Assembly: GCF_000179635.2 (NCBI RefSeq)
Contig: NC_014824.1
Span: 90,001 to 122,000, forward strand
Source: Ruminococcus albus 7 = DSM 20455
GTDB lineage: Bacteria; Bacillota; Clostridia; Oscillospirales; Ruminococcaceae
Length of the DNA: 32,000 nucleotides
Reading direction: 5' to 3'
Shown here: positions 3,620 through 24,593 of the stretch, one piece after another
How positions within the stretch are numbered: position 1 is the first letter of the stretch
Layout of the letters: each line of letters starts with the position of its first letter
The notes under the pieces: generated by a model
What the model was told of the DNA's origin: nothing
Database searches by the model: none
What the model saw: the letters and a program-made list of their open reading frames with translations, nothing else
Made by a program: the position numbers and the translations under genes

Positions 3620-5065
3620 ATGAAGTTAAAAAAAGTTTTAGCAGTAGTGATGTCACTTTGTATGGTGGCAGGAACTGTCAGCTACGGCGCACCTGTTATA
3701 ACACAGAGCATAACTGCGCAGGCGGCTGATTCAGCAACAAGCGGCTTTTCATTTAACCAAACAACAGGTATGCTTACGCTTAGCGGTACTGTTGATGGTG
3801 ATGCTTTACGTAAATTTAACAATACCTATCGCGATAACGTTTGGTCTGTCATAGTTTTGGAAGGAACTGTTCTTCCTGAAGACTGCAGCAAGCTTTTTTG
3901 CGAATATCCTTGTTATTCCATCGACCTTTCAAATGCGGATACAAGTAATGTAAAAAATATGAGCAGAATGTTCGATAACTGTTGCAATCTTAAATCGCTC
4001 AATTTAAGTGGATTTGATACAAGCAATGTTACTGATATGAGCTATATGTTCAACGAGTGTGGCAAACTTTATTCTATCGATGTAAGCGGATTTGATACAA
4101 GCAACGTTACAGATATGGGTGATATGTTCTCTCTTTGTGACCAATTAACATCGCTTGATGTAAGCAGATTTAACACAAGCAAAGTTACAGATATGAGTGG
4201 TATGTTCAATTCCTGTCTTAGCTTGTCAACGCTTGATGTTAGCGGTTTTGACACAAGCAATGTTACAGATATGTGTGATATGTTCTGGGGCTGTGCAAAA
4301 TTGACGTCACTTGATATTAGCAAATTTGACACAAGCAAAGTTACAAATATGGGTGGTATGTTCTGTGCCTGTAATAAATTGACTACACTTGATGTAAGCG
4401 GATTTGATACAAGCAAAGTAACCGATATGTCAGGAATGTTCGCTTCAACTAACTTATCAACACTTGATGTAAGCGGATTTGATACAAGCAAAGTAACCGA
4501 TATGATGGCAATGTTCTCTTCAAGAAATTTGACCGAACTTGATCTGAGCTCGTTTGATACAAGCAAAGTTACAAAGATGAACTGGATGTTCTCTTCTAAT
4601 CTACGTTCCCTTACTCTTGGCGAGAATTTCAAAAATGTTCCCGAAGAAGCAGAACTTTATAATGACAAAGGCTGGGTAAATTCCAAAGACATCGCGACTG
4701 TAGTCAGCGGTAACGGAGAGTATGCAGTTATCGAAAACACCGGCAAGAACACCTATAAGCGCTTACCTATCGTTGAAGAAACCAAGCTTACCTACCCTAC
4801 TAACATCAAAGTCGAGTACATAAAAAAATACCACCAGGTAAGATTCACATGGGATAAGGTCGAAAGTGCTGACAAATACAGCATTGCTGTTTTCCTTGCA
4901 GGCAAGTGGAGAGTTCAGAAACAGGATATCACCGGCACTGTTTATACATCTCCCAAAAATCTCACCCCGGGGAAGTCATACAAAGTCGCTATCGCTGCCA
5001 GAGTTGACGGAAAATGGGACACAGCAAATGCTATAAAACATTCGGGTACTGTTACTATAAGGTGA
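3620..5065 (+). CDS. Secreted DUF285/BspA-family LRR surface protein with C-terminal Fn3-like module
   Basis: SD aggagg, then ATG 3620. Signal peptide MKLKKVLAVVMSLCMVAGTVSYG. About 11 tandem 26-aa units of the form LDVSGFDTSNVTDMS.MF..C..LT. Tail KVEYIKKYHQVRFTWDKVESADKYSIAVFLAGKWRV...SGTVTIR. Confidence 0.85.
   Translation: MKLKKVLAVVMSLCMVAGTVSYGAPVITQSITAQAADSATSGFSFNQTTGMLTLSGTVDGDALRKFNNTYRDNVWSVIVLEGTVLPEDCSKLFCEYPCYSIDLSNADTSNVKNMSRMFDNCCNLKSLNLSGFDTSNVTDMSYMFNECGKLYSIDVSGFDTSNVTDMGDMFSLCDQLTSLDVSRFNTSKVTDMSGMFNSCLSLSTLDVSGFDTSNVTDMCDMFWGCAKLTSLDISKFDTSKVTNMGGMFCACNKLTTLDVSGFDTSKVTDMSGMFASTNLSTLDVSGFDTSKVTDMMAMFSSRNLTELDLSSFDTSKVTKMNWMFSSNLRSLTLGENFKNVPEEAELYNDKGWVNSKDIATVVSGNGEYAVIENTGKNTYKRLPIVEETKLTYPTNIKVEYIKKYHQVRFTWDKVESADKYSIAVFLAGKWRVQKQDITGTVYTSPKNLTPGKSYKVAIAARVDGKWDTANAIKHSGTVTIR
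3925..4600 (+). repeat. In-frame 78-bp tandem repeats encoding the 26-aa LRR units
   Basis: Periodic tttgatacaagcaa(t/a)gt.ac.gatatg motif every 78 nt. Confidence 0.8.
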
Positions 5066-5183
5066 CAGTTCAAAATTGATTCGATTTGATAAATGCAAAA
5101 CGGGACTGTTTCAACTAAGCAACAGCTCCTTCAAATTTGTCTCAACAAGAACAAGCTCTTTATTCTTAAAGGAGGAGGATCAT

Positions 5184-7859
5184 ATGAAAATTTTCAAACG
5201 CTTGACCGCTCTGTTTTGTACCGGTGGAATGCTCCTTATGTCAGCACCACACTGTGTTCTCACCTCTCATGCGGCACAAACAGTCAAGCTGTCACCGGAT
5301 AATACTTTTACCATAAACAATGGCGAATTTGAGGGCTGGGGTACATCTCTTTGCTGGTGGGCCAATCGCCTCGGCTATTCTGACTCGCTGGCACAGCAGG
5401 CAGCGGATGTGTTCTACGGTGATGAAGGTCTACGTCTTAATATTGCTCGCTTTAATATCGGCGGCGGTGATGATCCAAGCCACAATCATATCACACGAAC
5501 CGATTCCAATATGCCGGGATATACTAAGTATAGCAACGGAAAAATTACCTATGATTGGAGTGCTGATGCCAATCAGCGCAATGTGCTTATGCGGTCTATT
5601 CAGGCTGCCGGAGATGATATGATTGTGGAAATGTTCTCCAATTCGCCGCCCTATTACATGACGAAGAGCGGCTGTTCGTCAGGATCGGCAGATGCCAAAA
5701 GCAACAATCTGAAGGACGACCAATACGATGATTTTGCGCGGTATTTCGCGGAGGTTTGCTATCACTATCAGCACGACTGGGGCGTGAAGATCCAGAGCGC
5801 GGAAGCTATGAATGAGCCGTATACCAACTTCTGGAAGGCCAACAGCTACAAGCAGGAGGGCTGTCACTTCGATCAGGGAAGCTCGCAGTCAACCATGATC
5901 GTGGAGCTGCAAAAGGCGATGCGTGACAAGGGAATGGGCGATGTTATTCTTTGCGGTACGGATGAGACCTCCATTGACACGCAGATTAGCTCTTTTAACA
6001 AGCTCTCTAATGATGCCAAAAAAGCGATCGGTCGTATCGACACCCACACCTACGGCGGCAGCAAACGTGCCGAGCTAAAAAATATTGCCCTGTCCAACGG
6101 AAAAAATCTCTGGATGAGCGAGGTGGACAGCAGCGGCACGGCCGGGACGAATGCAGGTGAAATGAGTGCGGCACTCTGGCTGGCACAGCGTATCACGACC
6201 GATGTCAACGACATGAACGCATCGGCGTGGATCATGTGGCAGGTGATCGACAGCCACATTTCAAAGAACGGCTACAACGGCCGAAAGGATACCGGTATGG
6301 TGGACACGCAGAAGGGCTACTGGGGCGTGGCAGTTGCCAACCATGATGCAAATAAGATCGTTCTGACGAAGAAATACTACGCTTTCGGACAGTACTCGCG
6401 CTATATTCGCCCCGGTATGATTATGCTGAACTCCTCCGGCAATACTGTTGCCGCTTATGATCCTGAGACGGGACAGATCGTGGCTGTTTCCTACAATACA
6501 AGCGGCAGCAGTGCTGACATAACTTTCGATCTTTCAGACTTTGCTGAGGTTGGCAGCACGGCAAATGCGATCCGCACGAGCAAGAATGAGAACTGGAAGA
6601 ATGTGGGCACTATCAATCTAAACGGCAAAACGCTGAATGCAACCTTGCCCGGCAATTCCATCACAACGTTTGTCATTGAGGGAAATGGCAGTATAGGCGG
6701 CAATGAGATCAAGGTGCAGGCTGACAAGCTAAGCGGCTCTGACTCGTGGAAGCAAAATGCAGATACCGATTTCCACAAGGCTTTTGACGGCGACAACGCA
6801 ACATACTTCGACGGCACGAGAGTCGGCTGGGTACAGGCAGATCTGGGTGCGGTCTACGATCTGAGCGCACTTGCTTACTGCCCTCGTCAGAACTATGAAT
6901 ACCGTATGGTGGATGGCTATTTCGAGGTGTCGATGGACGGCACAGACTGGCAGAGCATACACACAATTAGTGAGAATCCCACATTTGCCATGCACAAAGT
7001 GAAACTTGAAAAGCCGATCACGGCACGTTATATCCGCTATGCAGTACCAGAGGGCAAGCCGCGCAACAGCTACAACACAAATGATGTTTATTGCTGTAAT
7101 GTAGCGGAAATCAAGCTCTATGGCACGCTGAATCCGGAGACGAGCTTTACAAAATTAGCGCCCGAAGCAACAAGCGGTACAGATTCGTGGAAGCAGCAGG
7201 AAGGCTACAATTACGGAAAGGCGTTTGATGGCGATACTGCAACCTACTTTGACGGTGTGGGTGCAGGCTGGGTACAGGCTGGTCTTGGGAAAATATGTGA
7301 GCTGAATGCGATCGCCTACACTCCCCGTAAGGGCTACGAAGCACGAATGGTGGACGGCTATTTCAGCGTTTCCGAGGATGGCACAAGCTGGCAGACGGTA
7401 CACACGATCGGCAGGATGCCCACATCGGACACACAGACCGTTATGCTCGATGCATCGGTGAAAGCAAGGTATATCCGCTACGCTGTTCCGGAGGGAAAGC
7501 CGAATAACGGCGTGAATACCGATGATGTGTACTGCTGCAATATTGCGGAGCTTGCGTTCTATGGCGCTGTACTGCCGAATGCGGTAATCAGCAACACTAT
7601 AAAAGTTGAATACAGCGAGAAATATCACCAGGTAAGATTCACATGGGATAAAGTCGAAGGCGCCGACAGATATGGAATTGCTGTATATCTTGCCGGCAAG
7701 TGGAGAGTTCAGGCGCAGAACATCACCGGTACGGTTTATACATCTCCCAAGAACCTGACACCCGGTAAGAAATACAGAGTCGCAATCGCTGCAAGGGTGA
7801 ACGGCAAATGGGATACCGCAAACGCTATCAAACATTCAGGTACCGTCACCATAAGATAA
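5184..7859 (+). CDS. Secreted glycoside hydrolase family 30 (clan GH-A) enzyme with two F5/8-type-C (CBM32-like) domains and a C-terminal Fn3-like module
   Basis: SD aaggagg, then ATG 5184, followed by a signal peptide. Motifs FEGWGTSLCWWANRLG, EAMNEPY (acid/base Glu) and LWMSEVD (nucleophile Glu). Two ~140-aa repeats: SWKQ...KAFDGD.ATYFDG...GWVQA.LG...ARYIRYAVPEGKP. Tail KVEYSEKYHQVRFTWDKVEGADRYGIAVYLAGKWRV...SGTVTIR. Confidence 0.9.
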   Translation: MKIFKRLTALFCTGGMLLMSAPHCVLTSHAAQTVKLSPDNTFTINNGEFEGWGTSLCWWANRLGYSDSLAQQAADVFYGDEGLRLNIARFNIGGGDDPSHNHITRTDSNMPGYTKYSNGKITYDWSADANQRNVLMRSIQAAGDDMIVEMFSNSPPYYMTKSGCSSGSADAKSNNLKDDQYDDFARYFAEVCYHYQHDWGVKIQSAEAMNEPYTNFWKANSYKQEGCHFDQGSSQSTMIVELQKAMRDKGMGDVILCGTDETSIDTQISSFNKLSNDAKKAIGRIDTHTYGGSKRAELKNIALSNGKNLWMSEVDSSGTAGTNAGEMSAALWLAQRITTDVNDMNASAWIMWQVIDSHISKNGYNGRKDTGMVDTQKGYWGVAVANHDANKIVLTKKYYAFGQYSRYIRPGMIMLNSSGNTVAAYDPETGQIVAVSYNTSGSSADITFDLSDFAEVGSTANAIRTSKNENWKNVGTINLNGKTLNATLPGNSITTFVIEGNGSIGGNEIKVQADKLSGSDSWKQNADTDFHKAFDGDNATYFDGTRVGWVQADLGAVYDLSALAYCPRQNYEYRMVDGYFEVSMDGTDWQSIHTISENPTFAMHKVKLEKPITARYIRYAVPEGKPRNSYNTNDVYCCNVAEIKLYGTLNPETSFTKLAPEATSGTDSWKQQEGYNYGKAFDGDTATYFDGVGAGWVQAGLGKICELNAIAYTPRKGYEARMVDGYFSVSEDGTSWQTVHTIGRMPTSDTQTVMLDASVKARYIRYAVPEGKPNNGVNTDDVYCCNIAELAFYGAVLPNAVISNTIKVEYSEKYHQVRFTWDKVEGADRYGIAVYLAGKWRVQAQNITGTVYTSPKNLTPGKKYRVAIAARVNGKWDTANAIKHSGTVTIR

Positions 7860-8337: not shown

Positions 8338-9507
8338 ATGCTGAACAGAATAGCACAAAAAGCGCTGCTTCGTCTTGCAGAGCAGTTCCCGATAGTAGGA
8401 ATCACAGGTCCAAGACAGAGTGGCAAATCTACGCTTACAAAGATCACCTTCCCCGACAAAAAGTATGTAACTTTTGATGATAAAAATATGCGTGAACTTG
8501 CAAAATCAAACCCCGCCGACTTTATTATGGCATTTCCAAATGGTGCCGTTATTGACGAAGCTCAAAAGGTGCCTGAGATATTTGATGCGCTTAAGCTTCA
8601 TGTTGACAGCGCTCCTTTCACACCGGGAAAATTCATTCTCACCGGTTCAAGCCAGTTCAGGCTTAGAAAGAATATGTCCGACAGCCTTGCAGGAAGGGCT
8701 GCTTTTCTGAAACTGCTCCCTTTTTCCATTAAAGAGCTTAAAGATGCTGACCTTCTGCCAAAGAACGCTTACGACCTTATTTTCGTAGGACAGTATCCTC
8801 CGCTTTTTGACAGTGAAAAGCATTATATTGCAGAAGACTGGTTTGAGAGCTATATCGACACTTATCTTGATCTAGATGTTAAAGACCAGATCAATGAGAG
8901 CAATCTGTCAACATTCAGAAAGTTCATTCAGATATGTGCTATATACAGCGGTCAGCTTCTTTCAATGGACAGCATAGCTAAGCAGATAGGTATTTCCCAA
9001 CCCACAGTAAAAAGCTGGCTGTCTATTCTTGAAAACTCATATATCATTCATTTGCTGGAGCCTGATACGAACAATCTTGGGCGTTCGATAGTAAAGACAC
9101 CAAAGCTGTATTTCGTCGATTCGGGACTGCTGTGTCATTTGTTAAGGTTGGAGAGCAAAGAAGATCTGCTTCTGAGCAAGTACAAGGGTGCTGTTGTTGA
9201 GACCTGTGCAGTAGCAGAGATGCTGAAAAACAGAATGAATCAGGCAAAAAAGCCGAATCTGACATTTTACAGAGACAGCAACGGTTTTGAGGTAGACACC
9301 ATAGCCGACTGGAAACACACATTTGCAGTAGAGATAAAAAGCTCAAGCGATGCGGAAGCAAAGCTGTCTGCAAACACTAAAAAGTATCTTACACTGCGAA
9401 ATGACGACAATGCCCATAATGCAGTATTCTATCTCGGTGATATCAGCATGACGATCAATGATACAATGTATGTCAGCTGGAAGGATTGGGGAGATCACCT
9501 TAATTAA
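8338..9507 (+). CDS. AAA+ ATPase with DUF4143 C-terminal domain (AAA_14/DUF4143 family)
   Basis: 389-aa ORF with SD gaggagg. Walker A GPRQSGKST and Walker B-like AVIDEAQ. The overall pattern is typical of the ATP-binding protein/DUF4143 family (from memory). Confidence 0.85.
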   Translation: MLNRIAQKALLRLAEQFPIVGITGPRQSGKSTLTKITFPDKKYVTFDDKNMRELAKSNPADFIMAFPNGAVIDEAQKVPEIFDALKLHVDSAPFTPGKFILTGSSQFRLRKNMSDSLAGRAAFLKLLPFSIKELKDADLLPKNAYDLIFVGQYPPLFDSEKHYIAEDWFESYIDTYLDLDVKDQINESNLSTFRKFIQICAIYSGQLLSMDSIAKQIGISQPTVKSWLSILENSYIIHLLEPDTNNLGRSIVKTPKLYFVDSGLLCHLLRLESKEDLLLSKYKGAVVETCAVAEMLKNRMNQAKKPNLTFYRDSNGFEVDTIADWKHTFAVEIKSSSDAEAKLSANTKKYLTLRNDDNAHNAVFYLGDISMTINDTMYVSWKDWGDHLN

Positions 9508-9638
9508 TCTGATCGAAATTTATTAAGGTTTAGATCCAACTCTACTCCATGTTATCAAGTAATAGAGCTGTTTTTATTATAGAAGGAATTTTTACGTGAT
9601 ATAAGCACTCTATAATAAAAAATATACCTACGGTTTAC

Positions 9639-9667
9639 TTGATTTTTTCTTGTAGATATGATATAAT
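9639..9667 (+). promoter_or_regulatory. Promoter of tRNA module 1
   Basis: TTGATT, 17-nt spacer, TGaTATAAT (extended -10). Confidence 0.65.
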
Positions 9668-9699
9668 GACCACAACATCAAAGAAAGGAGAAAACCGAG

Positions 9700-9828
9700 A
9701 TGAATAAGTTCACTGTTTCATATCTGTATAGCGAATCATTATTGAGCCTCGTCCTCGAATCGGAAGAGACTTCTTTTGTGCTGCGTACAGATAAAGTGGA
9801 TGAACATTTCGGGATTTCTTGTTTCTAA
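9700..9828 (+). CDS. Mini-ORF 1 (42 aa), candidate leader peptide: MNKFTVSYLYSESLLSLVLESEETSFVLRTDKVDEHFGISCF
   Basis: SD aaaggag lies 8 nt upstream of the ATG. The ORF lies between a consensus promoter and an intrinsic terminator. Codons 7-23 are almost exclusively Ser/Tyr/Leu/Glu. Confidence 0.6.
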   Translation: MNKFTVSYLYSESLLSLVLESEETSFVLRTDKVDEHFGISCF

Positions 9829-9851
9829 GTATTATTGATCCTTGTAAGTGA

Positions 9852-9886
9852 AACACCGTCTGTTTGCAGCAGGCGGTGTTTTTGTT
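9852..9886 (+). terminator. Intrinsic terminator / attenuator 1
   Basis: aacaccgtctg (9852-9862) pairs with caggcggtgtt (9870-9880). Loop tttgcag, followed by tttgtt. Confidence 0.75.
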
Positions 9887-9888
9887 AT

Positions 9889-9983
9889 GCCCATGTGTAT
9901 GAACGTTATCACCATAGTTGATAACTGGCATACATTTATGTTTTAGAAACAGGCTTTTTGGGGTTCGAGTCTCCCCACGGGTA
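9889..9983 (+). other. tRNA-like element (95 nt) with a canonical T-arm and acceptor end but no canonical anticodon arm; possibly a degenerate class-II tRNA
   Basis: T-arm tgggg-TTCGAGT-ctccc. Acceptor gcccatg/cacgggt has one A-C mismatch. Possible D-stem tatg/cata. I could not fold a 5-bp stem with a 7-nt anticodon loop. Confidence 0.3.
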
Positions 9984-9991
9984 TTATTTTT

Positions 9992-10066
9992 GCGGGATTG
10001 GCGGAACAGGCATACGCGACGGTCTCAAATACCGTTTTATTCAGGGTTCGACTCCCTGATTCCGCA
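9992..10066 (+). tRNA. tRNA with anticodon CAA (Leu) but a short (~6 nt) variable region
   Basis: Acceptor GCGGGAT/ATTCCGC plus A73. Leu-type D-arm TGGCGGAACAGGCATACGC. Anticodon stem ACGGT/ACCGT with loop CTCAAAT. T-arm CAGGG-TTCGACT-CCCTG. Total 75 nt. Confidence 0.7.
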
Positions 10067-10073
10067 TTTATAT

Positions 10074-10146
10074 GCTCTCGTAGACCAACGGCAGAGTGAA
10101 CGGACTTAAACCCCGTGTAGTGTGAGTTCGAATCTCACCGGGAGCA
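10074..10146 (+). tRNA. tRNA with anticodon UAA (Leu), class-I length, weak D-stem
   Basis: Acceptor GCTCTCG/CGGGAGC plus A73. Anticodon stem ACGGA/CCCGT with an A31-C39 mismatch, loop CTTAAAC. T-arm GTGAG-TTCGAAT-CTCAC. Only 2-3 bp of D-stem could be drawn. Confidence 0.55.
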
Positions 10147-10181
10147 TCAGGATCAATATACTTAGAAAGGAGATGTTTTCA

Positions 10182-10406
10182 ATGCCGGTGATAGACGTCA
10201 AAGCAACAGGAGCGAATATTAAAGCTATAATGAAAATGAAGGGCTTCAAGATCGCTGATGTTCAGGCAAGGTGCGGTTTCAATACTCCGCAGGCTATTTT
10301 CAAGTGGCTGCGTGGAGACGCTGTGCCAACTATAGATAATATGATAATCATAGCCGATATGTTCGGCGTGACTATCGATCAGATAGTTATAATCAAGAAG
10401 ATCTGA
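10182..10406 (+). CDS. Small XRE-family helix-turn-helix protein (74 aa), embedded between tRNA genes
   Basis: SD aaaggag, then ATG 10182. Sequence MPVIDVKATGANIKAIMKMKGFKIADVQARCGFNTPQAIFKWLRGDAVPTIDNMIIIADMFGVTIDQI. Roughly half of its residues match the protein at 11429-11659 by eye. Confidence 0.8.
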   Translation: MPVIDVKATGANIKAIMKMKGFKIADVQARCGFNTPQAIFKWLRGDAVPTIDNMIIIADMFGVTIDQIVIIKKI

Positions 10407-10430
10407 CTGTTATTGCGGTAACAGTCATAA

Positions 10431-10502
10431 GGCTGCATCGTCTAATGGTCAGGACACAAGGTTTTCAACCTTGAAACGTGGGTTCAACTCCCACTGCGGT
10501 CA
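10431..10502 (+). tRNA. tRNA-Glu (UUC)
   Basis: Acceptor GGCTGCA/TGCGGTC. D-arm GTCTAATGGTCAGGAC. Anticodon stem CAAGG/CCTTG with loop TTTTCAA. T-arm GTGGG-TTCAACT-CCCAC. Confidence 0.8.
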
Positions 10503-10567
10503 TTAATTCATCCGTATATGACATCAGCTATATTATAAGTATTCAAAAAAAATATTTCCATCCTTAA

Positions 10568-10596
10568 TTGACTTTTCGGGGATTTTCTTATATAAT
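10568..10596 (+). promoter_or_regulatory. Promoter of the gene at 10648-11094
   Basis: TTGACT, 17-nt spacer, TATAAT. Confidence 0.55.
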
Positions 10597-10647
10597 TAAA
10601 TAAGAATATTGTATTACTTATTTGAGATAATGAAAGGATGTTTTCTT

Positions 10648-11094
10648 ATGTCCATAGATAAAAGAACCGAAATGATCCTAAAAAAAGAGTCATTGACTAT
10701 ATTCAATCAGTTTTGTTCAAAACTGCCATCGGAGTCTTTAGGTCTGTTAATGATGTATCTGCAAAAGTTCAATGACGATAATCCTGATAACGGAACCATT
10801 GTTTTTACTAAAAAAGAATATGAAAAGAAGCTGGGAAATGAAGAAATATCAATCGATGAAATTCAGGACGGCATTCCAGATTTACTAGGTCCGGTAAGAT
10901 TTAAAGGCGATATTCAAATAATGTTTTCTATGTTCATAAGCATTAATATCAGGAAAATAAGCAATGAATATTCAATATTTATGACCTGCAGTGATATTGC
11001 AAAGGATTATATCTTTACCGATCCAAATGTTGCAAAGTATAATTTTATAGACGAGATAAAGAGAAGAATAGACGAGTTAACAAGTATAATGTAG
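10648..11094 (+). CDS. Hypothetical protein (148 aa); only a vague resemblance to winged-helix replication-initiator N-terminal domains
   Basis: SD aaagga, then ATG 10648 (MSIDKRTEMILKKESLTIFNQF...). No motif I can name with confidence. Confidence 0.55.
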   Translation: MSIDKRTEMILKKESLTIFNQFCSKLPSESLGLLMMYLQKFNDDNPDNGTIVFTKKEYEKKLGNEEISIDEIQDGIPDLLGPVRFKGDIQIMFSMFISINIRKISNEYSIFMTCSDIAKDYIFTDPNVAKYNFIDEIKRRIDELTSIM

Positions 11095-11107
11095 CTTACA
11101 AAGCTAC

Positions 11108-11136
11108 TTGACAATTCTCTTTATGAGTGTTATAAT
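11108..11136 (+). promoter_or_regulatory. Promoter of tRNA module 2
   Basis: TTGACA, 17-nt spacer, TGtTATAAT (consensus, extended -10). Confidence 0.7.
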
Positions 11137-11196
11137 CAGTTACAACAAGAGGGGAGCAACGATCTCCCGAAATTATATTACGAAAGGGTGAAAACA

Positions 11197-11334
11197 ATGA
11201 ATTCTATCATGAACAATACTGTTGTCAGATCATATGATGATTACCAGTGCTTCTTTAGCTTTAGTTTTGATTGGCAAGACGAAGGCTTATTTGTGCTGCA
11301 TACGAACACCGGTAATTGTTCAGTTCAAAGATAG
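11197..11334 (+). CDS. Mini-ORF 2 (45 aa), candidate leader peptide: MNSIMNNTVVRSYDDYQCFFSFSFDWQDEGLFVLHTNTGNCSVQR
   Basis: SD aaagggtg. The ORF lies between a consensus promoter and an intrinsic terminator. Codons 13-28 read YDDYQCFFSFSFDWQD. Confidence 0.6.
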   Translation: MNSIMNNTVVRSYDDYQCFFSFSFDWQDEGLFVLHTNTGNCSVQR

Positions 11335-11366
11335 AGTTTATTGACCATCTTCTGAGAGAATATGAC

Positions 11367-11407
11367 CGCCTGTATGTAGTGCAAACTCATACAGGCGATT
11401 TTTTATT
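11367..11407 (+). terminator. Intrinsic terminator / attenuator 2
   Basis: Perfect 10-bp stem cgcctgtatg / catacaggcg with an 11-nt loop, followed by attttttatt. Confidence 0.8.
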
Positions 11408-11428
11408 CTATCGGAAGGTGGTATTATT

Positions 11429-11659
11429 ATGACTGAAGAGATGCCTGTCATAAATATGACAGCGACAGGTTCCAATATAAAGACTCTTATAAAAGCAAAA
11501 GGTTTTAAAGTGACAGAGCTTCAGAACATTCTGGTGTTCAACACACCTCAGTCCATATTCAAATGGATGAGAGGGGAGTCCATACCCTCTATCGACAATC
11601 TGGTGATTCTGGCACATATACTGAATGTCACCATTGATGAGATAATAATCCTTAACTAA
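11429..11659 (+). CDS. Small XRE-family helix-turn-helix protein (76 aa), paralog of 10182-10406
   Basis: SD aaggtgg. Sequence MTEEMPVINMTATGSNIKTLIKAKGFKVTELQNILVFNTPQSIFKWMRGESIPSIDNLVILAHILNVTIDEI. Confidence 0.8.
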   Translation: MTEEMPVINMTATGSNIKTLIKAKGFKVTELQNILVFNTPQSIFKWMRGESIPSIDNLVILAHILNVTIDEIIILN

Positions 11660-11684
11660 TACGTCCTGTTCATTCAGGACACAC

Positions 11685-11758
11685 GGCTCCGTAGTTTAAC
11701 CGGCTAAAACACCGGCCTGTCACGTCGGAGAGCGCGGGTTCAAGTCCCGCCGGAGTCG
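11685..11758 (+). tRNA. tRNA-Asp (GUC)
   Basis: Acceptor GGCTCCG/CGGAGTC plus G73. Anticodon stem CCGGC/GTCGG with loop CTGTCAC. T-arm GCGGG-TTCAAGT-CCCGC. Confidence 0.85.
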
Positions 11759-11764
11759 TCATAA

Positions 11765-11835
11765 TTCCGTTTCGTCTAGTGGTAGGACATCGGTTTCTGA
11801 CACCGAAAACGGGAGTTCAAATCTCTCAGCGGAAA
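11765..11835 (+). tRNA. tRNA-Gln (CUG)
   Basis: Acceptor TTCCGTT/AGCGGAA (U1-A72). Anticodon stem TCGGT/ACCGA with loop TTCTGAC. T-arm GGGAG-TTCAAAT-CTCTC. Confidence 0.8.
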
Positions 11836-11841
11836 TAATTT

Positions 11842-11912
11842 GACTGTGTAGCCAAGTGGAAAGGCTGTCGGCTGCAACCCGACGAGCGTAGGTTCGATCC
11901 CTATCACAGTCT
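11842..11912 (+). tRNA. tRNA-Cys (GCA)
   Basis: Acceptor GACTGTG/CACAGTC plus U73. Anticodon stem GTCGG/CCGAC with loop CTGCAAC. T-arm GTAGG-TTCGATC-CCTAT. Confidence 0.85.
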
Positions 11913-11922
11913 TTAATCACAT

Positions 11923-11995
11923 GCCTCTGTAGCTCAGTTGGTAGAGCGTATGCCTGAAGAGCATAGCGTCGCAAGTTCGATTCTTGCCGGAGGCA
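11923..11995 (+). tRNA. tRNA-Phe (GAA)
   Basis: Acceptor GCCTCTG/CGGAGGC. D-arm TAGCTCAGTTGGTAGAGC. Anticodon stem TATGC/GCATA with loop CTGAAGA. T-arm GCAAG-TTCGATT-CTTGC. Confidence 0.9.
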
Positions 11996-12017
11996 CTTGT
12001 AAAAGTACAAATGTTTT

Positions 12018-12046
12018 TTGAATATCACAAATGTTATCTGTACTAA
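12018..12046 (+). promoter_or_regulatory. Possible internal promoter between tRNA-Phe and tRNA-Gln(UUG)
   Basis: TTGAAT, 17-nt spacer, TACTAA. A weak hairpin ttgta-aaag-tacaa plus a T-run (11997-12019) precedes it. Confidence 0.3.
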
Positions 12047-12048
12047 AT

Positions 12049-12120
12049 TTCCGTTTCGTCTAACAGGCAGGACAACAGACTTTGACTCTGTCAATGGGAG
12101 TTCGATCCTCTCAACGGAAG
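12049..12120 (+). tRNA. tRNA-Gln (UUG)
   Basis: Acceptor TTCCGTT/AACGGAA plus G73. Anticodon stem ACAGA/TCTGT with loop CTTTGAC. T-arm GGGAG-TTCGATC-CTCTC. Confidence 0.85.
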
Positions 12121-12127
12121 CTAATAA

Positions 12128-12204
12128 GTCTCTATTACAAATTATGTATTGAAATTCTATCGGGTATCATCTTTAGAATTCAAGGAGTAGTTTGTAATAG
12201 AGAT
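12128..12204. repeat. 77-nt bipartite hairpin in the spacer between tRNA-Gln(UUG) and tRNA-Trp
   Basis: Outer arms gtctctattacaaa (12128-12141) / tttgtaatagagat (12191-12204). Inner arms aattcta / tagaatt. Confidence 0.6.
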
Positions 12205-12213
12205 GATAGAAAT

Positions 12214-12285
12214 AGGAGAATAGTTCAATGGCTAGAATGACGGTCTCCAAAACCGTAGATCTCAGTTCGACTCTGAGTTCTCCTG
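12214..12285 (+). tRNA. tRNA-Trp (CCA)
   Basis: Acceptor AGGAGAA/TTCTCCT plus G73. Anticodon stem ACGGT/ACCGT with loop CTCCAAA. T-arm CTCAG-TTCGACT-CTGAG. Confidence 0.85.
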
Positions 12286-12302
12286 TCTATACTACAGGTT
12301 TA

Positions 12303-12331
12303 TTGAAATCTGTACTAAGTTATGTTATAAT
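12303..12331 (+). promoter_or_regulatory. Promoter of tRNA module 3
   Basis: TTGAAA, 17-nt spacer, TGtTATAAT (extended -10). Confidence 0.7.
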
Positions 12332-12363
12332 GTCATTAAAGAAATCAAGAAAGGAAGTTCATT

Positions 12364-12456
12364 ATGAAAAACACAGTATTTGCATTCTCATATTCATATA
12401 GTTATTCAAGCGTTGTTCAGAAGAATAAGGCTCGTTTGGCTATGCGTGAATGTTGA
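12364..12456 (+). CDS. Mini-ORF 3 (30 aa), candidate leader peptide: MKNTVFAFSYSYSYSSVVQKNKARLAMREC
   Basis: SD aaaggaag lies 7 nt upstream of the ATG. The ORF lies between a consensus promoter and an intrinsic terminator. Codons 9-16 read SYSYSYSS (tca tat tca tat agt tat tca agc). Confidence 0.6.
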   Translation: MKNTVFAFSYSYSYSSVVQKNKARLAMREC

Positions 12457-12482
12457 TACTGCTTGATGATAAGCTTCAGCAT

Positions 12483-12520
12483 ATACCGTTTGGCTTTCGG
12501 GTCAGGCGGTATTTTTATTT
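12483..12520 (+). terminator. Intrinsic terminator / attenuator 3
   Basis: ataccgtttggc pairs with gtcaggcggtat (12 bp including G-U pairs). Loop tttcgg, followed by ttttatttgtt. Confidence 0.75.
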
Positions 12521-12527
12521 GTTATTC

Positions 12528-12613
12528 GGGAGAGTCACCCAGCGGCGAGGGCAGCGGTCCGTAAAACCGTGACATTAGAAACATCGAAGGTTCGAGTCCT
12601 TCCTCTCCCACCA
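12528..12613 (+). tRNA. tRNA-Tyr (GUA), class II, CCA encoded, C at position 33
   Basis: Acceptor GGGAGAG/CTCTCCC, then A and CCA. Anticodon stem GCGGT/ACCGT with loop CCGTAAA. Long variable arm. T-arm GAAGG-TTCGAGT-CCTTC. Confidence 0.8.
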
Positions 12614-12617
12614 ATAT

Positions 12618-12703
12618 GAGCAGGTACAGAGAATCGGCAAACTCGGCGGTCTGTAAAACCGTTGCTTTATGCGTAGTGGGGTCGGCACCCACCCTGCCCA
12701 CCA
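12618..12703 (+). tRNA. Second tRNA-Tyr (GUA), divergent (A2-C71 mismatch, non-canonical T-loop), CCA encoded
   Basis: Acceptor GAGCAGG/CCTGCCC, then A and CCA. Anticodon loop CTGTAAA. T-arm GTGGG-GTCGGCA-CCCAC lacks the TTCRA signature. Confidence 0.6.
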
Positions 12704-12706
12704 TAT

Positions 12707-12798
12707 GTTGGCATAACCCTAACTGGTAAGGGATCGTCTTGGAAAGGCGAGAGTAATCGGAGTTTTCCGATGTTTCGGTTCGAATCCGAATGCCGACG
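12707..12798 (+). tRNA. tRNA-Ser (GGA)
   Basis: Acceptor GTTGGCA/TGCCGAC plus G73. Anticodon stem TCGTC/GGCGA with loop TTGGAAA. Long variable arm atcgga-gttt-tccgat. T-arm TTCGG-TTCGAAT-CCGAA. Confidence 0.85.
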
Positions 12799-12804
12799 TT
12801 ATGC

Positions 12805-12890
12805 GCTGTGTTAGTGTAATTGGTAACACACTGCTCCCGAAAAGCAGCGTCCTTTTGGACTTACAGGTTCGAGTCCTGTACACAGCGCCA
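12805..12890 (+). tRNA. tRNA-Ser (CGA), CCA encoded
   Basis: Acceptor GCTGTGT/ACACAGC, then G and CCA. Anticodon stem CTGCT/AGCAG with loop CCCGAAA. Variable arm gtcc-tttt-ggac. T-arm ACAGG-TTCGAGT-CCTGT. Confidence 0.8.
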
Positions 12891-12893
12891 TAT

Positions 12894-12988
12894 GGTCACA
12901 TAAGCCTAATTGGTAAGGCAGCGGTTTGCTAAACCGTGAGTAATCGGGTTATTCTGATGTCCGAGTTCAAATCTCGGTGTGGCCGCCA
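12894..12988 (+). tRNA. tRNA-Ser (GCU), CCA encoded
   Basis: Acceptor GGTCACA/TGTGGCC, then G and CCA. Anticodon stem GCGGT/ACCGT with loop TTGCTAA. Long variable arm. T-arm CCGAG-TTCAAAT-CTCGG. Confidence 0.85.
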
Positions 12989-12991
12989 TCT

Positions 12992-13078
12992 GCCGTGTAT
13001 GCAGGCTGGCTCTGCAAACTGTCTTGAAAACAGTATACCGTAAAAAACGGTACGTGGGTTCGATTCCCTCACGCGGCG
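12992..13078 (+). tRNA. tRNA-Ser (UGA)
   Basis: Acceptor GCCGTGT/ACGCGGC plus G73. Anticodon stem ACTGT/ACAGT with loop CTTGAAA. Variable arm taccg-taaaaaa-cggta. T-arm GTGGG-TTCGATT-CCCTC has one mismatch. Confidence 0.8.
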
Positions 13079-13123
13079 CTATAATAAACTATATTCATTA
13101 GAATGTGATTTTAGCAAAAAGAA

Positions 13124-13560: not shown

Positions 13561-13678
13561 ATAAATTTTCTTGTATAATAATATTGTAGATAATAATTAA
13601 TAACTGGAGGTCAGACAGATCAAATAATACTACTAATATAACACTATGGAACATAAAGCCATAAAAGGAGTGAACACT

Positions 13679-14797
13679 ATGGCAAACAAAGCATTTAAAT
13701 TCAGAATATACCCAAATAACGAGCAAAAGGTTTTGTTTGCCAAAACCTTCGGCTGTGTGAGATTGGTATATAACTATTGGTTATACAAAAAGATCAAGCA
13801 GTATAAAGAATATGAGACAACTTTAAATTACAATGCTTGTGCCAAAGAAATGGCTGAACTTAAGAAAATGGAGAAATACTCATTCTTACGGGAAGTGGAC
13901 AGCGTATCATTGCAGCAGTCGCTTCGACACCTGGATACAGCGTTTCAGAACTTCTATAAACAGCCTAAAACAGGATTTCCCAGGTTCAAATCAAAAAAAT
14001 GTAAAAAGAACAGCTATTCTACCGTTTGTATCAATGGTAACATAGCCATATCCAATGGATACTTGAAATTACCTAAAGTCGGACAAGTCAAAGTAAAACA
14101 GCACAGGAACATTCCTAATGAATATGTTCTCAAGTCTGTGACAGTAAGTCAGACTCCAAGCGGAAAATACTATGCAAGTATTCTGTATGAGTACGAAAAC
14201 CAAGTACAGGAACAGGAACTGCATGACTTCTTAGGGCTTGACTTTTCGATGCACGAGCTGTACAAAGACAGCAACGGCAATGAACCGGCTTACCCCGGAT
14301 ACTACAGAAGAGCTGAAAAAAAGCTAAAAAGAGAACAAAAAAAACTTTCTCTTATGCAGAAAGGCTCTAAAAACCGTGATAAACAACGTATCAAGGTTGC
14401 TAAAATGCATGAGAAAGTTGCAAATCAACGAAAGGACTTTCTACATAAACAGTCAAGACAGATAGCCAATGCCTATGATTGTGTATGTATAGAAGATCTA
14501 AACATGCAAGCAATGTCTCAGGCACTTAAATTCGGCAAGTCGGTTTCAGATAACGGCTGGGGAATGTTTGTAACATTCCTGAAGTACAAACTGGAAGAGC
14601 AAGGCAAAAGGCTTGTAAAGATAGATAAATTCTTTGCGAGCAGTCAGACTTGTTCGTGCTGTGGATACATCAATAAGGAAACAAAGAACCTTGCTATAAG
14701 AGCATGGGACTGTCCCGAATGCGGAACTCACCATAACAGAGATGTAAATGCTGCAATAAATATAAGAAATGAAGGTATGCGTATAGCATTAGCGTAG
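13679..14797 (+). CDS. tnpB: TnpB RNA-guided endonuclease (IS200/IS605 OrfB family), apparently intact
   Basis: SD aaaggag, then ATG 13679 (MANKAFKFRIYPNNEQ...). RuvC residues are present: LGLDFS (D), CIEDLN (E), HNRDVNAAINI (D). Zinc finger CSCCG...CPECG. Confidence 0.9.
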   Translation: MANKAFKFRIYPNNEQKVLFAKTFGCVRLVYNYWLYKKIKQYKEYETTLNYNACAKEMAELKKMEKYSFLREVDSVSLQQSLRHLDTAFQNFYKQPKTGFPRFKSKKCKKNSYSTVCINGNIAISNGYLKLPKVGQVKVKQHRNIPNEYVLKSVTVSQTPSGKYYASILYEYENQVQEQELHDFLGLDFSMHELYKDSNGNEPAYPGYYRRAEKKLKREQKKLSLMQKGSKNRDKQRIKVAKMHEKVANQRKDFLHKQSRQIANAYDCVCIEDLNMQAMSQALKFGKSVSDNGWGMFVTFLKYKLEEQGKRLVKIDKFFASSQTCSCCGYINKETKNLAIRAWDCPECGTHHNRDVNAAINIRNEGMRIALA

Positions 14798-16123: not shown

Positions 16124-17449
16124 ATGCAGATATATACGACTTACAGCGTTAAGATCAAGCATTACAACAACATCTTTAAAGATACCGTTATCGTATACAG
16201 ACATGCTGTAGATTACCTTATCAGCGTTTGTCTGGATCATTGGGATAACATTGTTACATTCAAAGGGGTGAGTAGACTCACATATATTGAAACACTGATC
16301 CATGCTACAAAAGATAATCCCGATCCAATTTATGATTTTGATGCCAAATTCTATAAGATGCCAAGCTATCTGCGCCGTGGTGCAATCAACGAGGCTATAG
16401 GCAAGGTATCATCTTACAAAAGCAATCTCGATAACTGGATCAAAGATCCGGTCGGAAGAGAACCATCGCATCCAAAAGCAGGTTATTCATTCCCGTCTAT
16501 GTATCGTACAGGAATGTACAATCAGACCGGTGATTATACTGCCCAGATCAAAGTCTACATCCGTAATACATGGGACTGGATAACGATAAACCTTAAAAAG
16601 TCTGATATGGATTATATATACAGACATTGCCGCTTACGCAAACAATGCGCTCCAACACTTCAAAAACGAGGCAAGGAGTGGTTTTTGGACTTTCCGTTTG
16701 AGGAAAAGGTCAAACTTGCAGATATATCTGTGTATGAACAGACCATTGTTGCTGTAGATCTTGGTATCAACACTGCCGCTACGGTTTCCGTAATGCGTTC
16801 AGATGGCACTATTCTTGGAAGGCATTTTTGTAAGCTTACCAAAGAAACAGACCATCTGATGCATAGCATTAACCGTATAAAAAAAGCTCAGCAGCATGGT
16901 AACTATAAAACACCAAGGCTTTGGGCAAAAGCCAAAGGCATCAATCACGACATTGCCATAAAAACTGCGAACTGCATCGTAAATATAGCTGTTCTTTATA
17001 ATGCAGATGTTATTGTATTTGAGCATTTAGACAAGAACGGTAAGGTCCGCGGTTCTAAAAAGCAGAAACTCAAGCTGTGGCGCAGTCAGGAAGTTCAGTC
17101 TATTGTAACGAATAAAGCTCACAGACTGGGTATGAGAGTAAGCCATATCTGTGCATGGAATACGTCACGCCTTGCCTACGATGGCAGTGGTTTTGTACTT
17201 CGTGGTAAATTCGGTGGTTTCAATACCTATGAGCTATGCAAATTTCAAAATGGCAAGTCCTACAACTGTAATCTATCTGCTTCGTATAATATTGGGGCAA
17301 GATATTTCATACGTGAAATATTAAAATCCTTGGATGAGAATTCAAGGTTGCTCATTGAGGCAAAAGTACCTCAATGCAGTAAGAGAAGCACCTGCACGTT
17401 CTCTACCTTAGTTAACCTGAATGCGGAAATTATTGCTCAAACAGCATAA
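16124..17449 (+). CDS. TnpB-related protein (441 aa) with an atypical RuvC-III / zinc-finger region
   Basis: SD ggaggga, then ATG 16124. RuvC-I IVAVDLGIN and RuvC-II DVIVFEHLD are present. The position aligning to RDVNAAINI reads CNLSASYNI (Asn instead of Asp). The CxxC...CxxC cysteines are replaced by LAYDGSG ... CKFQNGKSYNC. Confidence 0.75.
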   Translation: MQIYTTYSVKIKHYNNIFKDTVIVYRHAVDYLISVCLDHWDNIVTFKGVSRLTYIETLIHATKDNPDPIYDFDAKFYKMPSYLRRGAINEAIGKVSSYKSNLDNWIKDPVGREPSHPKAGYSFPSMYRTGMYNQTGDYTAQIKVYIRNTWDWITINLKKSDMDYIYRHCRLRKQCAPTLQKRGKEWFLDFPFEEKVKLADISVYEQTIVAVDLGINTAATVSVMRSDGTILGRHFCKLTKETDHLMHSINRIKKAQQHGNYKTPRLWAKAKGINHDIAIKTANCIVNIAVLYNADVIVFEHLDKNGKVRGSKKQKLKLWRSQEVQSIVTNKAHRLGMRVSHICAWNTSRLAYDGSGFVLRGKFGGFNTYELCKFQNGKSYNCNLSASYNIGARYFIREILKSLDENSRLLIEAKVPQCSKRSTCTFSTLVNLNAEIIAQTA

Positions 17450-23436: not shown

Positions 23437-24593
23437 TTAAGCTGCTTGCGGCTCTTCGGGACGCCTGATGTCTCTTAACAGTTTTTCCGGCTCATAGTCA
23501 GCACCGCTTTTCAGTATGGCATAAAACACTCGTATCAGCTTGTTTGACAGTACCATTAGCGACTGTTTCTTTTTCAGCGGATTCGTTTTTCTGCCTGTGT
23601 AATAGTGATGTATTTCCTTGAATTCCGGATTTGTCGCTGTCAGTGATAAGACTGCCTCAAACAGAAGAAACCTAAGCCGCTTCCGCCCTCGCTTACTTAT
23701 CCTTGACTGCCCTTTATCTGCATCAGCTTCTTTGCATAAGGCACCTTACTGACCAGTGTTTCGATCAGTTCCATTATCTGTTCAAGTCGGTTTTGAAGTC
23801 TGTCGTAGTCCTCAAGCAGCAGAAATATCTCCAACCTCGCAGTTTCATGTCCCTCGGTATGACCGATGCTTCGCCTTGCAGCCTCTACCAGGGTCTTAGC
23901 CCTCTTTTTACCGACTGCTCTCAGCTTGGCTTCACGCCATATCTCATTGATCTTTTCCTCTCCGAGCGCTATGATGTCACACGGCAGTGCGGCTTTTTTC
24001 AGTATCATCATACTGCTGACTGCACTGAAACTACCGTAAACGTCTTTATACTCCGGAAAGTATATCGTAAACCAGCGCTGTATGCGATTTTTGATCCGTG
24101 TGAGTTCTGCCTCTGCCTGAAACCTAAGAACGGTTGCATTTCTTAGCTCGGCGTATATACACTCAGGCATATACGGATAAGCGTATCTGCCTTCGATGAC
24201 GAGTTTCGCAATTGTTTTGGGATCCTTCCTGTCGTTCTTGCTGGGAAGGTGATCATCAAGTTCTTTGCTTCGCTTAACGTGGAGCGGATTGACCAGTACC
24301 GGCTGCATTCCGTTATCCTGAATAAACTTAGCGAGATCGAACCAATAATGTCCTGTCGGCTCCATAGCCGGCATAACGGTTTCTTTTCCGCTCTTTTCCA
24401 TGATCCCGGTGATCCATTCAAAAAAGCCTGCGAATCCTTCTGCGTCATTTGTGAACACATAGGCCTTCTTTGAATATTCCATCCCTCTCCAGTCAAATGC
24501 TCTGGCATGGTGCTTTTCGCTGCCTACATCGATCCCGACAATTATTTTTTCTTCTCCTACTTGCAAAATCTTTTCATTTTGTGTATAATACAT
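23437..24593 (-). pseudogene. IS110-family transposase gene with an internal deletion and frameshift
   Basis: The N-terminal DEDD domain ORF (IVGIDVGSEKHHA..., 24593-23697) stops after ...KKLMQIKGSQG*. The C-terminal domain continues in another frame: ISKRGRKRLRFLLFEAVLSLTATNPEFKEIHHYYTGRKTNPLKKKQSLMVLSNKLIRVFYAILKSGADYEPEKLLRDIRRPEEPQAA*, with its stop at 23437-23439. Confidence 0.75.

Follow-up and report, generated by a model that had tools for sequence, protein, structure and literature searches.

A Predicted Codon-Matched Leader-Peptide Attenuator Upstream of tRNA Genes in Ruminococcus albus 7

A Leader ORF Precedes an HTH Gene and Six tRNA Genes

Bacterial tRNA genes are usually viewed as globally controlled, through the growth rate and the stringent response. 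Here, we describe a tRNA locus of Ruminococcus albus 7 = DSM 20455 in which the tRNA genes are likely to be controlled by the translation of their own codons in a short leader peptide. The locus lies in a 32,000-nt stretch of contig NC_014824.1 (positions 90,001 to 122,000 of the forward strand), which is called the window in the following and whose first letter is position 1. ARAGORN predicts 14 tRNA genes on the plus strand between 9991 and 13079 (3.1 kb), arranged in three modules. We concentrate on module 2, where a promoter and a short leader open reading frame (ORF) are followed by an intrinsic terminator, a gene for an XRE-family helix-turn-helix (HTH) protein and six of the tRNA genes. 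Its parts are listed below, with related loci from other genomes given by our L numbers.

11091-11107, plus strand: inverted repeat GTAGCTT-ACA-AAGCTAC abutting the -35 element, candidate operator predicted to be bound by the XRE-HTH protein of the module
11108-11136, plus strand: sigma-70-type promoter TTGACA-17-TATAAT with a TG extension, 12 of 12 consensus positions, same architecture in all related modules
11152-11168, plus strand: hairpin GGGAGCAACGATCTCCC in the 5′-untranslated region, within a 40-nt stretch that is not in modules 1 and 3
11183-11191, plus strand: Shine-Dalgarno (SD) sequence AAAGGGTGA of the leader ORF, nearly invariant in 40 aligned leaders, with the ATG at 11197
11197-11334, plus strand: leader ORF MNSIMNNTVVRSYDDYQCFFSFSFDWQDEGLFVLHTNTGNCSVQR, 45 codons and a TAG stop; an ORF of 28-58 codons is kept here in related modules
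11236-11280, plus strand: putative regulatory codon run DDYQCFFSFSFDWQD, in the zone from -20 to -4 codons before the antiterminator strand that is cargo-enriched family-wide
11257-11287, plus strand: hairpin P1 with a U-rich stretch 3′ of it, from the minimum-free-energy fold; the same hairpin occurs in L010, L012, L021, L026 and L032
11290-11303, plus strand: predicted antiterminator 5′ strand (segment 2) TTTGTGCTGCATAC, encoding the conserved FVLHT and able to form a duplex with the terminator 5′ arm
11345-11362, plus strand: nearly invariant conserved box CCATCTTCTGAGAGAATA, an anti-SD element
11367-11407, plus strand: intrinsic terminator with a 14-bp GC-rich stem (11367-11397, -18.8 kcal/mol) and a T-run; its 5′ arm is segment 3, the partner of segment 2
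11429-11659, plus strand: XRE-family HTH gene, 76 amino acids (PF01381, E 8e-9), preceded by an SD of its own at 11413-11421 and first in the read-through transcript
11684-11760, plus strand: tRNA-Asp (GUC), starting 25 nt past the HTH gene
11765-11835, plus strand: tRNA-Gln (CUG)
11842-11912, plus strand: tRNA-Cys (GCA)
11923-11996, plus strand: tRNA-Phe (GAA)
12049-12121, plus strand: tRNA-Gln (UUG)
12213-12287, plus strand: tRNA-Trp (CCA)

All six tRNA genes are called by ARAGORN, with the anticodons named in the original prediction, and are recovered by the Rfam tRNA model at 54-70 bits. The original prediction, made from the letters alone, had singled out codons 14-28 of the leader ORF, which re-reading confirmed to be gat gat tac cag tgc ttc ttt agc ttt agt ttt gat tgg caa gac. 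Under standard wobble rules, 12 of these 15 codons can be decoded by the six downstream anticodons, the others being tac (Tyr) and agc and agt (Ser). When all stop-free 15-codon stretches in the six frames of the window were ranked by this measure, the one starting at 11236 came first of 32,110. With a background frequency of cognate codons of 0.178, a binomial estimate gives about 0.009 stretches with at least 12 matches per 32 kb, so the match goes beyond chance, although the far stronger support comes from related loci.

Leader Codons Match the tRNA Cargo in Related Loci

Searching species-representative genomes with an alignment of HTH homologues yielded 79 loci. They belong to R. albus, R. 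flavefaciens, other Oscillospiraceae, Lachnospiraceae, Anaerovoracaceae/Mogibacterium and Solobacterium, and most are labelled as derived from the rumen or the gut of herbivores. A tRNA gene on the same strand starts at most 200 nt downstream in 64 of the 88 HTH copies, with six more copies ending at a contig edge, and a leader ORF and terminator lie upstream in 71 of the 88. The tRNA cargo ranges from Gln-Cys-Phe-Gln up to 28 tRNAs (L071).

The leaders were clustered at 80% similarity, which gave 31 clusters, and segment 2 was defined in each as the strand forming the best duplex with the 5′ arm of the terminator. Residues cognate to the cargo exceed expectation only between codons -20 and -4 ahead of segment 2 (0.43-0.83 per position, compared to 0.26-0.42 for permuted cargo), and elsewhere their frequency equals the null. 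Within the 17 codons before segment 2, 61.1% of the residues are cargo amino acids, compared to 35.0 +/- 3.0% when the cargo is permuted (z 8.7, a value reached in none of 100,000 permutations), and 95.7% of the cargo amino acids are represented there (null 64.7%, z 6.6). Taken singly, D, W, E, H, L, F, Q, Y, I, P, K, G, N, C and R all show the association; Ser, whose count in the leader does not track the cargo (p = 0.15), is the sole exception. Covariation is frame-specific, as triplets readable by the cargo anticodons make up 58.3% in the frame of the ORF and 13.9% and 16.1% in the other two (z 9.0), which argues that the leader ORF is read by ribosomes.

Despite shared descent, the cargo has changed separately in many cases, and the leader has changed to match. 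The leader FFAQQFQFRFFRQWQ precedes Trp, Phe and Gln tRNAs (L018), SERYSEHHESFSHEGEE precedes Glu, His and Ser (L060), and QYVFEYQQYSFFQYQEE precedes Glu, Gln, Phe, Gln, Tyr and Ser (L013). In L071, two leaders split nearly all amino acids between two modules, each fitting its own tRNAs; one of them, RLICAQINRFEQDFHIIDWEND, goes with Asn, Glu, Gln, Arg, Asp, Trp, Ile, His, Cys and Phe. A scan of metagenome contigs with the operator and promoter pattern returned the same families and one more, with the leader MKQFTM..LYSEHYEESFYHESEE and Glu, His, Tyr, Glu and Ser tRNAs. The central idea of the original prediction, a leader enriched in the codons of the downstream tRNAs and forming the sensing part of an attenuator, is hence supported by the comparison, since orthologous as well as paralogous leaders match their own cargo.

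The finer claims made for the run fared less well. It had been noted that the order of the codons follows that of the genes, and at the level of amino acids this holds in module 2 itself, where D, Q, C, F and W appear in gene order (tau = 1). However, Kendall tau averages -0.10 over 24 independent leader/cargo pairs (p = 0.39). It is positive only among close relatives of module 2 (L032 0.8, L027 0.6 and L012 0.4; elsewhere L018 -0.33, L022 -1.0 and L013 -0.6), and colinearity was rejected as a general feature. The proposal that cag and caa sample the two Gln isoacceptors was likewise rejected, as CAG accounts for about 86% of leader Gln codons regardless of the Gln cargo (102 CAG and 17 CAA with both Gln tRNAs, 18 and 3 with Gln-CUG only). 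Both details are incidental. The non-cognate Tyr and Ser codons had been assigned to module 3, which does carry Tyr-GUA and four Ser tRNAs. In the relatives L013, L012 and L032, Tyr and Ser tRNAs end the same module, and it is plausible that these codons of module 2 reflect history rather than design, a new promoter and leader (those of module 3) now preceding the tRNAs in question.

Some loci (L038, L056, L016, L064, L074, L076-L078 and L085) have an intact-looking leader, terminator and HTH gene with no detectable tRNA or ligase gene downstream, and the leaders of L038 and L056 are rich in Asn, Asp and Ser. These modules may be orphaned sensors or may carry another kind of cargo.

The Leader RNA Has a Terminator and a Conserved Antiterminator Partner

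Segment 2 (11290-11303) is complementary to the 5′ arm and loop of the terminator (11368-11384) over 13-14 pairs (-18.2 kcal/mol, z -3.3). Across nearly all families, the 5′ arm of the terminator finds its best partner at the equivalent position of the leader (mean z -3.3 against shuffled arms), including families in which the partner sequences differ, such as TGCTGCACCCAAGG / CCGTCTGGGTGCAG, AATATGAGATGAG / CGCTTGTCTCATAT and GATATAAGTGG / CCGCTTATGC (families including L018, L071 and Lachnospiraceae). There are 46 type-B leaders with the conserved ORF and SD, of which 40 close ones were aligned; in this alignment, 85.7% of the antiterminator cells are paired, compared to 13-61% in slid registers. 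The terminator itself has 11 consensus pairs, with compensatory changes at two.

The consensus fold contains two further pairings. The SD (11185-11190) pairs with 11346-11351 in 38-40 of the 40 sequences, a pairing that covariation is unable to confirm because the conserved box never varies, and codons 2-4 pair with the region of the stop codon, where compensatory changes are present. The conservation of the peptide motifs MNxIMNN (N-terminal) and FVLHT is explained by these RNA pairings, which constrain them, and outside the pairing segments the sequence of the leader peptide is not conserved. The leaders of the modules fold far better than shuffled sequences (z -5.0, -5.1 and -4.3). Module 1 (9721-9732 with 9780-9793) and several relatives clearly have a helix between a segment 1 and segment 2 (E -12 to -17, z -2 to -5). 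In module 2, the only competitor of the antiterminator is P1 (11257-11287) with a 6-bp extension; this conserved hairpin, whose 5′ arm includes the two Ser codons of the run, may be an RNA polymerase pause site and partial anti-antiterminator.

Taken by sequence, module 2 has four of the five features of a leader-peptide attenuator: an ORF with a ribosome-binding site, a cluster of cognate codons, an intrinsic terminator and a mutually exclusive antiterminator. Lachnospiraceae and L060-type leaders have their stop codon at segment 2, which is the arrangement of trpL.

The HTH Protein and Its Candidate Operator Vary Together

A 16-nt inverted repeat directly upstream of the -35 element is conserved in about 60 modules, essentially all of them of the Ruminococcus/Oscillospiraceae type, and is found in the window at 11091-11107, 9623-9638 and 12288-12302. 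It falls into two classes, TATACCnnnGGTTTAC in modules 1 and 3 and TAGCyTACAAAGCTAC in module 2. The AAGCTAC class occurs with PQS in the recognition helix of the HTH protein in 8 of 8 cases and the GGTTTAC class with PQA in 39 of 40, and in genomes that have both, each class stays with its own module. Judged by these correlations, the HTH protein of module 2 is probably a repressor that acts on the promoter by binding the inverted repeat at 11091-11107, so that read-through would feed back negatively on the module. The near-consensus promoters make a role as a repressor more likely.

The module 2 HTH protein has 91 homologues named Ruminococcus, the close ones being labelled Ruminococcus albus by their sources, and the same protein and gene order are also present in NCBI assembly GCA_000621285.1. 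A finer name for the protein was dropped, as PDB and NCBIfam give weak, generic XRE/RstR-like matches only.

The tRNAs Appear to Be Accessory and Relatives Carry RNA Ligase Genes

Among R. flavefaciens strains, a Phe or second Gln-CUG gene is present or absent with leaders unchanged, and module 1 of the window contains a tRNA-Leu(UAG) gene broken by an insertion. In Ruminococcus and related Ruminococcaceae/Clostridia loci, the array tRNA-Asp genes (window, L010, L012, L026 and L032) are 68-77% identical, except for two close pairs (90% and 93%); across all array loci compared, the identity falls to 61%, and the copies differ from the conventional tRNA-Asp in L018. The module tRNAs thus appear, from their sequences, to be accessory and fast-evolving copies. 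They diverge much faster than expected of housekeeping tRNAs, and some tRNA-Asp copies have the anticodon loop CUGUCUA (L012 at 6255, L071 at 8549 and L084 at 2489), with a U at position 37, which is nearly universally a purine.

In Anaerovoracaceae/Mogibacterium (L066-L073 and L086), the same kind of promoter, leader and terminator is followed by rtcB (PF01139, about 4720-5930), the HTH gene and then the tRNAs. In L068, L072 and L073, the rtcB-HTH pair has a leader and no tRNAs were found downstream, and L079 (5756-5926) and L081 (5830-5922) retain only a C-terminal remnant of rtcB. A further variant in L030 (254-1836, also L058) has a leader with an Ile run (..SAIIIIDQ..), a terminator, the HTH gene and then an Rnl-type RNA ligase gene (PF09414 and PHA02142 OB domain) without a tRNA gene; from this gene content, a tRNA-Ile damage sensor driving a repair enzyme is possible. 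Neither rtcB nor an RNA ligase gene is present in the window.

An Attenuation Model and Its Alternatives

We consider it likely that module 2 is a ribosome-mediated leader-peptide transcription attenuator whose products are the XRE-type regulator and the six tRNAs, with stalling at cognate codons turning on the accessory tRNAs. The promoter at 11108-11136 would start a transcript bearing the 45-codon leader, whose sensing zone (codons 14-28) is made up almost wholly of Asp, Gln, Cys, Phe and Trp codons. With fast decoding, the ribosome would advance, the upstream RNA would refold and the hairpin at 11367-11397 with its T-run would end transcription before the HTH gene. With any cognate aminoacyl-tRNA scarce, the ribosome would stall in the run and keep P1 open, and segment 2 would be left free because the regulatory codons end at -4; segment 2 would then pair with the emerging 5′ arm of the terminator, and RNA polymerase would read through into the HTH gene and the tRNAs. 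Repression of the promoter by the HTH protein on its inverted repeat would add a second layer, of negative feedback. Since the output is tRNA, the loop would correct a shortage of tRNA and not of amino acid, and because the tRNAs appear to be accessory and fast-evolving, they are likely to serve as a reserve of specific tRNA species for times of high demand or damage. What the sequence analysis shows is the anatomy of the module, the frame-specific match of codons to cargo and the conserved complementarity of terminator and antiterminator; which way the switch works, what the HTH protein does and which signal acts as the physiological trigger are inferred.

Several results weigh against the model. 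The permutation statistics overstate independence because the modules share ancestry, and 31 clusters are not 31 independent events. In the close family, both strands of the antiterminator are strongly conserved, which leaves few true compensatory changes (both sides changed in 4 of 15 pairs). A convincing segment 1/segment 2 helix was searched for in module 2 and not found (z +0.2), and unlike in trpL the stop codon lies about 10 codons beyond segment 2. Equilibrium folding, modelled with a ribosome footprint on each codon in turn, failed to yield the switch, as the hairpin always won when the full terminator was present, and in a transcript cut before the 3′ arm, the module 2 antiterminator formed even with the ribosome at the stop codon. 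As this folding, on full-length and truncated transcripts, did not separate the ON and OFF states, it was set aside as support. The direction of the switch hence rests on geometry, and the OFF state must rest on kinetics and on the refolding of P1.

The same attenuator could respond to amino-acid starvation, as those of trp, his and phe do, with tRNA induction as a side effect or as part of a general starvation programme. The layout of the leader resembles that of the classical attenuators, and it is established for leader-peptide attenuation that a stalled ribosome cannot distinguish a missing amino acid from a missing tRNA. However, extra tRNA cannot relieve a shortage of amino acid, no gene for amino-acid biosynthesis was seen downstream of any module examined, and a single leader samples up to 10-12 amino acids that match the cargo (L071 and L084), which follows no biosynthetic logic. 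The same leaders would also control the RNA ligases RtcB and Rnl, and we regard starvation as an unlikely signal.

The polarity of the switch could also be the reverse, so that smooth translation of the leader leads to read-through, stalling leads to termination and the tRNAs are made when they are plentiful, in a feed-forward manner. This would agree with the antiterminator of module 2 forming in the equilibrium model with the ribosome at the stop codon, and with an ORF that runs well past segment 2. It is nonetheless improbable, as the cognate codons end at -4, where a stalled ribosome frees segment 2 rather than covers it. In the classical layout of the Lachnospiraceae and L060-type leaders, with the stop codon at segment 2, a terminating ribosome blocks the antiterminator, and in module 1 it is segment 1, which a stalled ribosome would cover, that pairs strongly with segment 2.

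Direct sensing of tRNAs through codon-like triplets of an untranslated leader, in the manner of a T-box with several specifiers, would account for the cognate triplets being clustered in a structured leader upstream of a terminator. It is very hard to reconcile with the strong conserved SD and ATG, with the conserved length and stop position of the ORF and with triplets that are specific to one frame (58% compared to 14-16%), and in the leader region (9600-12530) tRNA is the sole Rfam match, with no T-box (RF00230) or Trp, His, Leu, Thr or Phe leader family even at E <= 1. A functional small peptide or chance ORF that matches the tRNAs by coincidence is hardly credible, for although the run alone, expected about 0.009 times per 32 kb, is not overwhelming, the covariation over 31 leader clusters (z 8.7 to 9.0), the fit of each of the three paralogous modules of the window to its own cargo and a peptide that is not conserved outside the RNA-pairing segments already exclude coincidence.

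Beyond the attenuation model, the modules may serve the codon-resolved surveillance of tRNA integrity as a defence or counter-defence system, which we put forward more tentatively, as a possibility. Each leader would sample the decoding of its own cargo codons, and the loss of a tRNA to an anticodon nuclease of toxin-antitoxin, contact-dependent-inhibition, bacteriocin or phage-defence origin would stall the ribosome and induce replacement tRNAs, which diverge fast and may be nuclease-resistant. In some lineages, RtcB or Rnl would be induced as well and would mend the damaged tRNAs, and the HTH protein would reset the promoter.

Comparison with Known Systems

Module 2 resembles the classical attenuators (trpL, hisL, pheL, leuL, thrL and ilvL, and pheM of pheST) in having a short, presumably translated ORF with regulatory codons, overlapping terminator and antiterminator structures and, by the model, stalling as the sensor of aminoacyl-tRNA. 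With pheST and its pheM leader, a component of the translation apparatus is already known as the product of a gene regulated by attenuation. Module 2 differs from these attenuators in the genes that it would regulate, those of tRNAs and an HTH protein, to which relatives add RNA ligases; in a run that mixes 2 to 12 amino acids fitted to the cargo rather than one or two; and in its second layer of operator and HTH protein. No similarity to them in sequence or Rfam family was found. Leader-peptide attenuation has been described in general (PMC1183508), and such attenuators are rare in Firmicutes, the lineage of the host here (PMC2965389).

Functionally, the nearest known case is the inducible tRNA array of Anabaena. 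In Anabaena PCC 7120, the supernumerary tRNAs of the trn operon ('L-array') are silent until translation is impaired, and rtcB and the repressor TrcR are co-regulated with them (PMC8421152, PMC10272220). Inducible tRNAs that appear to be extra copies would be common to the two systems, which also share a link to RtcB (here in relatives) and a dedicated small DNA-binding repressor (here a candidate). Control in Anabaena is exerted at transcription initiation, by the ribbon-helix-helix protein TrcR on 9-nt direct repeats over the -10 element and transcription start site, and the same two papers (PMC8421152, PMC10272220) mention no leader peptide or attenuator for the array. By contrast, each module here has a predicted codon-matched attenuator, an XRE HTH_3 protein and an inverted repeat upstream of the -35 element, and the features of TrcR were not found; the 14 tRNAs of the window are spread over three modules, whereas those of Anabaena form one long operon. 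Long arrays (L-arrays, PMC8421152; 'tRNA array units', PMC4758250) are defined by a minimum of 20 tRNA genes and a density of two or more per kb. With 14 tRNAs in 3.1 kb, the window falls short of this size, which relatives reach, as L071 has 28 tRNAs.

Like a T-box, the leader of module 2 is a Firmicutes leader with alternative terminator and antiterminator structures that would report the charging of specific tRNAs. T-boxes bind uncharged tRNA directly, with no need of translation, and control genes for aminoacyl-tRNA synthetases, biosynthesis and transporters. The leader here has no T-box motif, and its signal is frame-specific.

Phages and mycobacterial plasmids also carry arrays of extra, fast-diverging tRNAs, which have been proposed to counter tRNA-targeting defences and may replace host tRNAs lost to nucleases (PMC12803027). 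The loci described here are chromosomal, in rumen bacteria, and no relatives of them were found in the phage and plasmid collections searched. We know of no leader-peptide control described for phage or plasmid tRNA arrays. A phage origin of the modules was rejected, as INPHARED gave only isolated tRNA matches, IMG/VR contained no HTH relative and only 1 of 12 operator-pattern matches on viral contigs was genuine; a plasmid origin was rejected as well, with no match in PLSDB.

In the literature covered, which included PMC3082878, PMC2965389 and 10.1101/2022.04.22.489220 and left subscription-only papers outside, we came across no tRNA genes said to be controlled by leader-peptide attenuation. 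To the extent of that search, the control of tRNA genes by codon-matched leader attenuation has not been described previously. It would form a direct loop of supply and demand, with the supply of an individual tRNA set by the speed at which its own codons are decoded, and would widen textbook leader-peptide attenuation in two ways, by a new class of output and by leaders that sample many amino acids simultaneously. If the surveillance reading is true, the modules would be the first known instance of tRNA genes governed by how their own codons are translated, as well as a novel type of defence or counter-defence module. The association with RtcB and Rnl would offer a testable answer to the question of how tRNA damage is sensed in cells outside the RtcR/sigma-54 paradigm. 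Among the main fibre-degrading bacteria of the rumen (R. albus and R. flavefaciens), the system is common, and there tRNA-targeting warfare or an unusual codon demand may matter ecologically. The paralogous modules, with one scaffold and different runs and cargo, would provide a ready design series for codon-specific biosensors of tRNA availability.

Paralogous Modules and Neighbouring Genes

The two paralogous modules of the window consist of the following parts.

9623-10502, plus strand: module 1, with operator 9623-9638, promoter 9639-9667 and leader ORF 9700-9828 (..SESLLSLVLESEE..)
9721-9732, 9780-9793 and 9853-9879, plus strand: segment 1, segment 2 and terminator of module 1
Module 1 cargo, plus strand: Leu-CAA, Leu-UAA, HTH gene (10182-10406) and Glu-UUC
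12288-13079, plus strand: module 3, with operator 12288-12302, promoter 12303-12331, leader ORF 12364-12456 and terminator 12483-12512
Module 3 cargo, plus strand: Tyr-GUA, Ser-GGA, Ser-CGA, Ser-GCU and Ser-UGA

The SD context, TCATAT, TTTGTGCTGC and the terminator CCGnCTGT...CAGGCGG-T5 are common to the three leaders, whose main differences are in the codon run and the cargo. All three modules match their own cargo; in the module 3 leader (..SYSYSYSS..), 8 of 8 codons are cognate to it.

At 9887-9985, in module 1, lies a tRNA-Leu(UAG) gene broken by an insertion of about 20 nt in the region of the D-arm, for which ARAGORN gives no call. It aligns with the intact Leu(UAG) gene of L008, and the same broken form occurs in R. 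albus AR67 (L062). From this alignment, the broken gene may explain the ctg codons of the module 1 leader, which are now non-cognate. In module 3, a second, Tyr-like tRNA remnant is seen at 12614-12705, between Tyr-GUA and Ser-GGA, with the anticodon loop CUGUAAA, a CCACCA end and an aberrant T-arm; neither ARAGORN nor Rfam calls it, and its fold is not better than that of shuffled sequences (z -0.14). The spacer between Gln-UUG and Trp in module 2 is unusually long and has a perfect 13-bp inverted repeat at 12129-12141 and 12191-12203 (TCTCTATTACAAA / TTTGTAATAGAGA) around about 50 nt, which could be a processing hairpin or a small insertion.

Between modules 1 and 2, an ORF of 161 amino acids (148 in the NCBI assembly) has been inserted at 10568-11094, with its own near-consensus promoter at 10568-10596. 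Pfam and NCBIfam give no match for this ORF, and L008 and L009 have no space for it at the corresponding position. Directly upstream of the tRNA modules lies an AAA_14/DUF4143 ATPase gene (8338-9507), found also in the distant relative L038 (4284-5606), which may be a chance neighbour. The tRNA region is flanked by insertion sequence (IS) elements, namely two IS605-family TnpB-like genes and an IS110 transposase gene (13646-14797, 16124-17449 and, on the minus strand, 23697-24593), and the remaining window is rich in genes for surface proteins of the BspA-type leucine-rich-repeat, DUF285 and F5/8-type-C kinds.

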